A stretch of 49,529 bases of DNA from Okamejei kenojei (lineage: Eukaryota). Shown piece by piece: positions 36,201 through 36,548 of this stretch. The notes beneath the pieces were generated by a model. That model saw only the letters and a list, made by a program, of their open reading frames with translations. It made no database searches and was not told the DNA's origin. Every line of letters begins with the position of its first letter. The first letter of the stretch is position 1. Where the stretch lies: contig JAVHYY010000289.1 of NCBI GenBank assembly GCA_035221665.1, positions 186,001-235,529 on the forward strand, written 5' to 3'. A program made the translations under genes and the position numbers.

Positions 36201-36548
36201 CTGAAGTCACTGTCAGGGAGGTTCCTGCACCCCAGTTGTAAAGCTGGTTGCACGCACCACAGTAATAGGTGGCCGTGTCGTCCAGCCTCAGGCCGTTCAT
36301 TTGGAGATAGACGTTGCTGCTCACCATGGTAACCTCGAATCGGCCGCTGAAGGCAGGCGCGTTTTTTTTGTCACCATCATGCCTTATCCTCCCCACCCAC
36401 TCCAGCCCTTTCCCGGAGACCTGTTTCACCCATTGGAAGTTGCAGTTACTGAGGTTGAACCCGCTGGTTGCACAGGTCAGTTTGACGGACCCTCCAGGCT
36501 TTGCCACCGCGGTCGGGGTCTGGTCTATCACGATCGCGGATCGAACGC
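36201..36548 (-). CDS. IgW: Germline-joined IgW VH-D-JH exon
   Basis: Acceptor ttttattggcag|. Open frame GVRSAIVIDQTPTAVAKPGGSVKLTC..WVKQVSGKGLEWV..DTATYYC-GACNQLYN-WGAGTSLTVTS with both canonical Cys, the FR2 Trp and the J motif WGxG. Donor TCAG|GTAAGA. No RSS or spacer DNA between V and J. Confidence 0.95.

Follow-up and report, generated by a model that had tools for sequence, protein, structure and literature searches.

A germline-joined IgW heavy-chain gene of the skate Okamejei kenojei with additional cysteines in CDR1 and CDR3 of a conventional-type VH

Results

The analyzed window, a stretch of 49,529 nucleotides of the Okamejei kenojei genome (contig JAVHYY010000289.1, positions 186,001 to 235,529), carries on its minus strand an IgW heavy-chain gene in which V, D, and J are joined in the germline. 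A leader exon (MGVAAYVCLLLVCLP; 36655..36700) ends in a GT donor and is followed by an intron of 106 nt and by the V(D)J exon (36201..36548), which is in frame, has intact AG and GT splice sites, and matches the Pfam V-set family (2.4e-15). No RSS heptamer is left in the interval 36300-34001, from which the D-interval is absent as well. Unjoined sister clusters on contig C10 retain the V-D-D-J arrangement with RSS. The joined cluster keeps its introns and is thus not a retrocopy.

The joined V domain possesses the canonical Cys22 and Cys92 and a CDR3 of only eight residues, G-A-C-N-Q-L-Y-N, which is flanked by Cys92 (36261-36259) and Trp103 (36234-36232). Framework 2 reads V37, Q39, and G44-L45-E46-W47, W103 is kept, and CDR2 is present; V37, Q39, G44, L45, W47, and W103 are presumably the residues that form the light-chain interface of a conventional VH. 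An AlphaFold2 model built from a 56-row alignment reached a pLDDT of 90.7 for the V domain and contains CDR2 and strands 47-54 and 60-62. The best Foldseek matches of this model were antibody Fv or Fab entries with TM-scores near 0.9. Judged by its residues, the window V is of the conventional type and predicted to pair with a light chain. CDR1, the glycosylation sequon, CDR3, framework 2, and the CH1 cysteine had been read from the sequence in a preliminary description, and all of them proved exact on the minus strand, codon by codon.

Downstream of the V(D)J exon, all constant-region exons lie in the same orientation. The CH1 exon (28638..28946) encodes an extra cysteine (SSCNTES) that is, by homology, the one bonding the light chain. 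The CH2 exon (18054..18350) is open and at one site 3 nt shorter than in sister copies. It is followed by an intact exon for the Cys-rich secretory tail of the short, two-C-domain IgW form (17320..17447), which shares 90% identity with the tail of the little-skate chain P0063; a long Cys-rich tail of this kind is described as peculiar to the short form in passages of PMC4279169. The exons CH3 (9967..10269), CH4 (8153..8471), CH5 (4764..5084), and CH6 with long-form secretory tail and stop codon (2533..2918) complete the six C exons of the long IgW form, which is nonetheless out of frame as assembled. The cause is CH4, which at 319 nt is one base longer near its 3' end than two unjoined copies on C10. 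This frameshift is either real or an assembly error, and it may stem from long-read sequencing, as such errors are plain elsewhere on the contig. If it is real, the window copy would be limited to the short IgW form.

The joined V is 61-68% identical over its whole length to the V domains of the skate IgW/IgX chains P0059 (Amblyraja radiata), P0060 (Raja eglanteria), and P0063 and P0068 (both Leucoraja erinacea), compared with 41-45% identity to IgM-like V genes of the same genome. By inspection, the window CH1 also matches skate IgW/IgX CH1. With V and CH1 closest in sequence to named IgW/IgX chains, we classify the gene as a skate IgW (IgX) heavy chain. Protein searches recovered no ortholog of this V, and their best matches had 68% identity over the whole V and 72% over 84% of it.

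Two further TGC codons encode non-canonical cysteines at Kabat H32 (36442..36444, minus strand), within the CDR1 SGFNLSN-C-NFQW, and at H95 (36250..36252, minus strand), within the fixed CDR3; Kabat numbers follow our own counting, with the conserved Cys and Trp residues as anchors. A predicted N-glycosylation sequon, N-L-S, is located at H28 (36448..36456, minus strand; Asn codon 36456-36454). Both cysteine positions are rarely used. Among 201 V-like domains in the fetched protein set, Cys was present at H32 in four and at H95 in six, some of the latter being read-through beyond the end of V, and no domain had both. None of 22 batoid IgW-like V domains carried a cysteine in CDR1. The two unjoined IgW V genes on C10 encode Tyr (TAC) at H32, and Cys32 therefore requires only one transition.

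A DNA search of the genome yielded six IgW-like V exons, including the window exon. One of them, L002 (G000:C376:26762-27106), is a second joined copy on the same contig, 195 kb away and 93% identical. It shares the junction length, both extra cysteines, and the sequon site, where it reads N-H-S, and it has a third extra cysteine at H93 (Y-Y-C-C-A-C). L002 is changed at usually conserved framework sites, and conserved framework residues are altered in both joined copies. A single-sequence structure model of L002 was uninformative (pLDDT 52.7). The positions G000:C376:1-39700 repeat the window positions 10033-49510, such that the 235-kb contig matches itself at its two ends with a period of 195 kb; this repeat represents either a duplication in tandem or a pair of haplotypes that were set end to end. 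Many indel-type errors occur at the start of the contig.

Among the remaining four exons, L004 and L006 (G000:C10:3003490 and 3050846) are the two unjoined IgW V genes mentioned above. In the assembly, CDR2 of both contains an indel of 1 nt, which marks either pseudogenes or long-read errors. Their clusters have more C exons downstream than the window cluster. L050 (G000:C10:5049100-5049570) is another germline-joined IgW V with a short junction that has decayed through many small deletions. It apparently has Tyr at H32, and its junction may or may not share its origin with that of the window. L051 is an unjoined IgW-like V of noisy sequence.

Eight sequencing runs were compared, all as assembled contigs, which indicate presence and carry no information on level. 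The two DNA runs of organism A, X1 and X21, come from two studies, and each contains one gap-free contig of 315 nt across the junction. These contigs differ from the window at 20 (X1) and 19 (X21) positions, as expected for L002 over the respective spans, and 16 listed sites in each all match L002; the Cys at H93 is likewise matched in DNA runs of both studies. Organism A is thus probably the same species or one very close to it, and one of the DNA runs may be the source of the assembly itself. No run is on record as RNA. We nevertheless take X4 and X5 to be RNA, since in both the V exon runs directly into CH1 sequence and X4 additionally skips the leader intron: in X4, leader, V(D)J exon, and CH1 lie in one contig (contig 16) without the 106-nt intron, and in X5, two overlapping contigs cover V(D)J with CH1 and the upstream part of V. 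Both carry the G-A-C-N junction of the window in a third V variant, which differs in X5 from the window at 8 of 217 nt.

Junction-spanning contigs were thus present in four samples (X1, X21, X4, and X5) from three studies. Neither Cys codon is changed in the X5 and X21 contigs, and X1 and X4 are consistent with both cysteines, with positions 36443, 36258, and 36248 in agreement among the rows listed. Since the second genomic copy and the X21 and X5 contigs keep both codons, the cysteines are not errors of the window assembly alone. Three variants, namely the window copy, L002, and the X4/X5 variant, carry both cysteines. The recurrence of the junction in a second genomic copy and in several samples also shows that it does not derive from a somatic clone, and DNA contigs together with spliced contigs indicate a lineage that is germline-encoded, shared between samples, and transcribed. 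A single V-D-J joining has become a fixed part of the germline. None of the eight runs contained the V variant of the window itself, which, with contigs only, is not evidence of its absence. The same applies to organisms B, C, D, and E (X8, X9, X11, and X12), in which no contig crossed the junction; contigs of X8 and X11 derive from unjoined V genes.

Sequence divergence between the joined copies is concentrated in the V exon (36202-36546 compared with C376:26762-27106), with 24 differences at 345 sites versus 3 at 498 promoter sites and none at 153 sites of leader and leader intron (p 5e-9). Synonymous sites of this pair are also raised (5/81). A footprint of germline hypermutation that would set the joined gene apart was considered and rejected, as the unjoined C10 pair (L039 vs L043) shows the same V-confined divergence, with 12 of 289 V sites versus 1 of 499 flanking sites. 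In joined and unjoined IgW pairs alike, the V exon differs by 4-7%, and promoter, leader, and leader intron differ by less than 1%. Because the unjoined pair has the same pattern, fast V divergence or homogenized flanks appear to be general to IgW clusters. The pattern could result either from selection on V accompanied by gene conversion in the flanks or from a locally raised mutation rate.

The ratio dN/dS between the joined copies was 1.03 (dN 0.074, dS 0.071). It amounted to 1.5-1.9 between joined and unjoined V genes and to 1.2-1.8 for frameworks alone, and no value deviated significantly from 1. Positive selection on the joined V was accordingly discarded as a candidate, with Fisher p values of 0.11-0.22 for the ratios of 1.5-1.9 after proper multi-hit codon handling.

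The co-occurrence of the two cysteines reflects descent from one joining event and not three independent cases. If the 24-30 observed changes were spread over the exon, both TGC codons would escape replacement with a probability of 0.63-0.69, and about 200 changes would be needed before retention of both reached P<0.05. With three variants that trace back to one event and retention expected by chance, selection for the Cys pair is unsupported. The earlier suggestion that the neighbouring cysteines hint at selection rather than decay is therefore not upheld, as retention is unremarkable, dN/dS does not deviate significantly from 1, and the sister copy bears a third cysteine. That third cysteine at H93 also indicates that odd thiols seem to be tolerated.

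Discussion

Here, we propose that the window encodes a germline-joined IgW whose CDR1 is probably tied to the base of CDR3 by a disulfide, resulting in a pre-set binding site on a VH that would pair with light chains in the ordinary way. We hold this explanation with moderate confidence. The joining event would have supplied Cys95, unless this residue was gained later, and a single TAC-to-TGC change would have produced Cys32. In the endoplasmic reticulum, the two thiols could then be oxidized, aided by the loss of Arg94 (Gly93-Ala94), and the resulting bond would link CDR1 to the base of a very short CDR3 and thereby pre-set the binding site. The joined VH would associate with an ordinary light chain, and the product would be secreted at least in the short two-C form. 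By analogy with other joined genes of sharks and skates, it may serve as an invariant antibody of early life.

Arg94 normally packs on residue 32 of a VH, and the joined V, with Gly93-Ala94, is without it. In the AlphaFold2 model, the two cysteines (Cys35 and Cys99 in P0001 numbering) lie just beyond the ends of strands 37-43 and 92-98, blocks with a pLDDT of 85-91, and Cys32 and Cys95 are thus predicted at the ends of the adjacent strands C and F. In typical VH geometry, however, the cross-sheet partner of H95 is H33, and H95 is directed to the face opposite to that of H32. The window copy has an even number (two) of extra V cysteines. An even count in a secreted V domain usually means pairing, as is also assumed in the cited portion of bioRxiv 10.64898/2026.02.13.705647. 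Furthermore, H32 is a proven position for bonding to CDR3, with Cys32-Cys98 of antibody VRC01 as described in an excerpt of PMC6303191. The partner of H32 that we found in the literature on conventional VH domains is H98 and not H95. The searched literature contained no example of an H32-H95 bond, and no solved H32-H95 template was among the best five alignments of each short-query PDB search. The H98 precedent, the usual VH geometry, the lack of an H32-H95 case, and the third cysteine of L002 all lower the expectation of a bond. On balance, we consider formation of the intradomain H32-H95 disulfide somewhat probable.

The strongest competing explanation, which we regard as possible but rather unlikely, is that the two cysteines are unpaired passengers in a young joined gene under relaxed constraint, a Tyr-to-Cys change in CDR1 and a Cys at the junction that were gained independently and are carried along as the copies drift. 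One transition suffices for Cys32, the sister copy has acquired a third cysteine, dN and dS are equal between the joined copies (0.074 vs 0.071), and conserved framework residues are altered in both. CH4 is frameshifted as assembled, and another joined IgW on C10, L050, is a decayed pseudogene. Yet all three variants retain an open V frame, splice sites, and the light-chain-interface residues, one variant is spliced in two samples (X4 and X5), and the V of L002 is identical across two studies at every listed site. Moreover, the two rare cysteines sit in adjacent loops.

A more far-reaching version of the preferred explanation is that Cys32, Cys95, the H28 sequon, and the eight-residue junction form a disulfide-locked, glycosylated core of an innate-like IgW family, in which the other V residues diverge under selection about ten times as fast as the flanks. 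Such a family would be the light-chain-paired counterpart of the neonatal type III IgNAR. We put this forward as an unlikely and tentative idea.

It is less probable still that the window copy is no clean germline allele and derives from the transcribed variant by somatic mutation or mis-assembly, such that the Cys pair is real in the lineage and the other changes of the window copy are not. Eight of 217 sites differ between the window and the X5 variant, seven of them through changes seen only in the window, while L002 is unchanged across studies, and the contig start is rich in indel-type errors. Promoter and leader next to V are nearly error-free, however (3/498 and 0/153), and divergence is confined to V in the unjoined copies of C10 as well (12/289 vs 1/499); in any case, this explanation would leave the Cys pair unaffected. 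A role for the cysteines without a bond between them, in which Cys95 faces the VL and bonds a light-chain cysteine, another heavy chain, or a small thiol, or in which the thiols contact the ligand, is improbable, since extra cysteines are present in none of the four joined light-chain V genes examined on C25 (4 of the C25 matches) and the window copy has an even number of them, even though H95 is usually turned toward the VL side and the odd count in L002 implies at least one fate outside an intradomain bond.

The gene with its putative CDR1-CDR3 bond resembles the named IgW/IgX chains of other skates (P0060, P0063, P0068, and P0059) in leader, CH1-CH2, Cys-rich short tail, and long-form C exons, and differs from them by the germline-fixed V-D-J, the cysteines at H32 and H95, and the CDR3 of eight residues. 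Germline-joined immunoglobulin genes are known from sharks and skates and include IgM1gj and joined NS4 light chains of the nurse shark and joined heavy chains of the clearnose skate (PMC4279169, PMC2193156, and PMC2435157, each in part), and early expression is described for some of them (PMC2193156, PMC4279169, PMC5192425, and PMC2435157, likewise in part). The window gene shares with these the in-frame pre-joined V(D)J, a normal promoter and introns, an invariant CDR3, and the occurrence among unjoined clusters. In contrast, it is an IgW and not an IgM or light chain, and a CDR1-CDR3 Cys pair is not mentioned for the known joined genes in the cited sections of these papers.

Type II and III IgNAR V domains also have one extra cysteine in CDR1 and one in CDR3, and type III has a restricted CDR3, is partly germline-joined in the nurse shark, carries a Trp in CDR1, and still rearranges (sections of PMC4622739). 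As characterized there, the VNAR is without a light chain, CDR2, and two strands, whereas CDR2, CH1, and the VL interface are all present in the skate gene. The conserved CDR1 Trp beside the bond that is a hallmark of type III IgNAR is absent from the joined V. Because it keeps these three features and lacks this Trp, the joined V is not a member of IgNAR.

Camelid VHH antibodies are devoid of CH1 and have altered, hydrophilic framework 2 hallmarks. VHH-like features are absent from the joined V, which has V37/G44/L45/W47, a CH1 spliced to V, and a CDR3 of eight residues. VHHs with an interloop disulfide are similar in combining a germline cysteine outside CDR3 with one in CDR3, and their bond goes along with a long CDR3, on average 19.6 residues in a test subset of 15 (bioRxiv 10.64898/2026.02.13.705647, in part). 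The analogy to VNAR and VHH that was initially drawn is loose, because the bond in those domains usually tethers a long CDR3 and the skate CDR3 has eight residues with the cysteine at its base.

Closer parallels are offered by light-chain-paired antibodies. The human VRC01/NIH45-46 VH has a cysteine at H32 that is bonded to a CDR3 cysteine (PMC6303191, in part), but the partner is H98, the CDR3 is longer, and Cys32 is somatic, compared with H95 as candidate partner, an eight-residue CDR3, and two germline cysteines in the skate. Chicken VH domains often have a CDR3 cysteine, and in types 3-6, which are conventional VH domains, this residue and a second V cysteine could form a bridge; according to excerpts of PMC6008532, these cysteines arise somatically through Cys-rich D segments and gene conversion, whereas the skate cysteines are fixed in one joined gene. 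Extra CDR disulfides in general are described as frequent in camelids, chickens, cows, and sharks (PMC10641266, in part). The preliminary description had viewed the pair as a possible convergence in a conventional VH, and indeed we find a conventional VH with two rare cysteines. The convergence is less striking than it seemed, as CDR1-CDR3 bonds occur in light-chain-paired VH, with Cys32-Cys98 in VRC01 and the potential CDR3-to-V bridges in chicken as examples.

Each ingredient is thus known, and it is their combination in a fixed IgW V that appears to be undescribed: in the open literature searched, which did not extend to older papers on skate IgX, no joined IgW of a skate is described with this Cys pair, and the sections consulted of PMC12227049 and PMC7916673 contributed nothing on the gene. 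With conventional VH domains bearing CDR1-CDR3 bonds already on record, a bond in the skate protein would not establish a new principle; if real, it would extend the known set by a compact connection of CDR1 and CDR3 that sits at the base of a short loop. Passages of PMC2193156 pose it as an open question whether the germline-joined antibody genes found in sharks and skates become specialized or decay. The lineage described here provides a concrete test, as one junction is represented by three variants, of which one is transcribed, and carries an easily assayed candidate change in structure.

Pre-joined V exons of the Okamejei kenojei genome extend beyond IgW. L003 and L005 (G000:C2:163799732 and C24:44631758) are open, germline-joined IgM-like V(D)J exons without extra cysteines. 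In addition, a tandem family of non-rearranging VJ-type exons (L015-L017, L020, L021, L026, L027, and L030) occupies G000:C8 at 21.7-22.7 Mb, and its members share a very short, nearly invariant CDR3-like end (YYCTVWGDIRGNGT).
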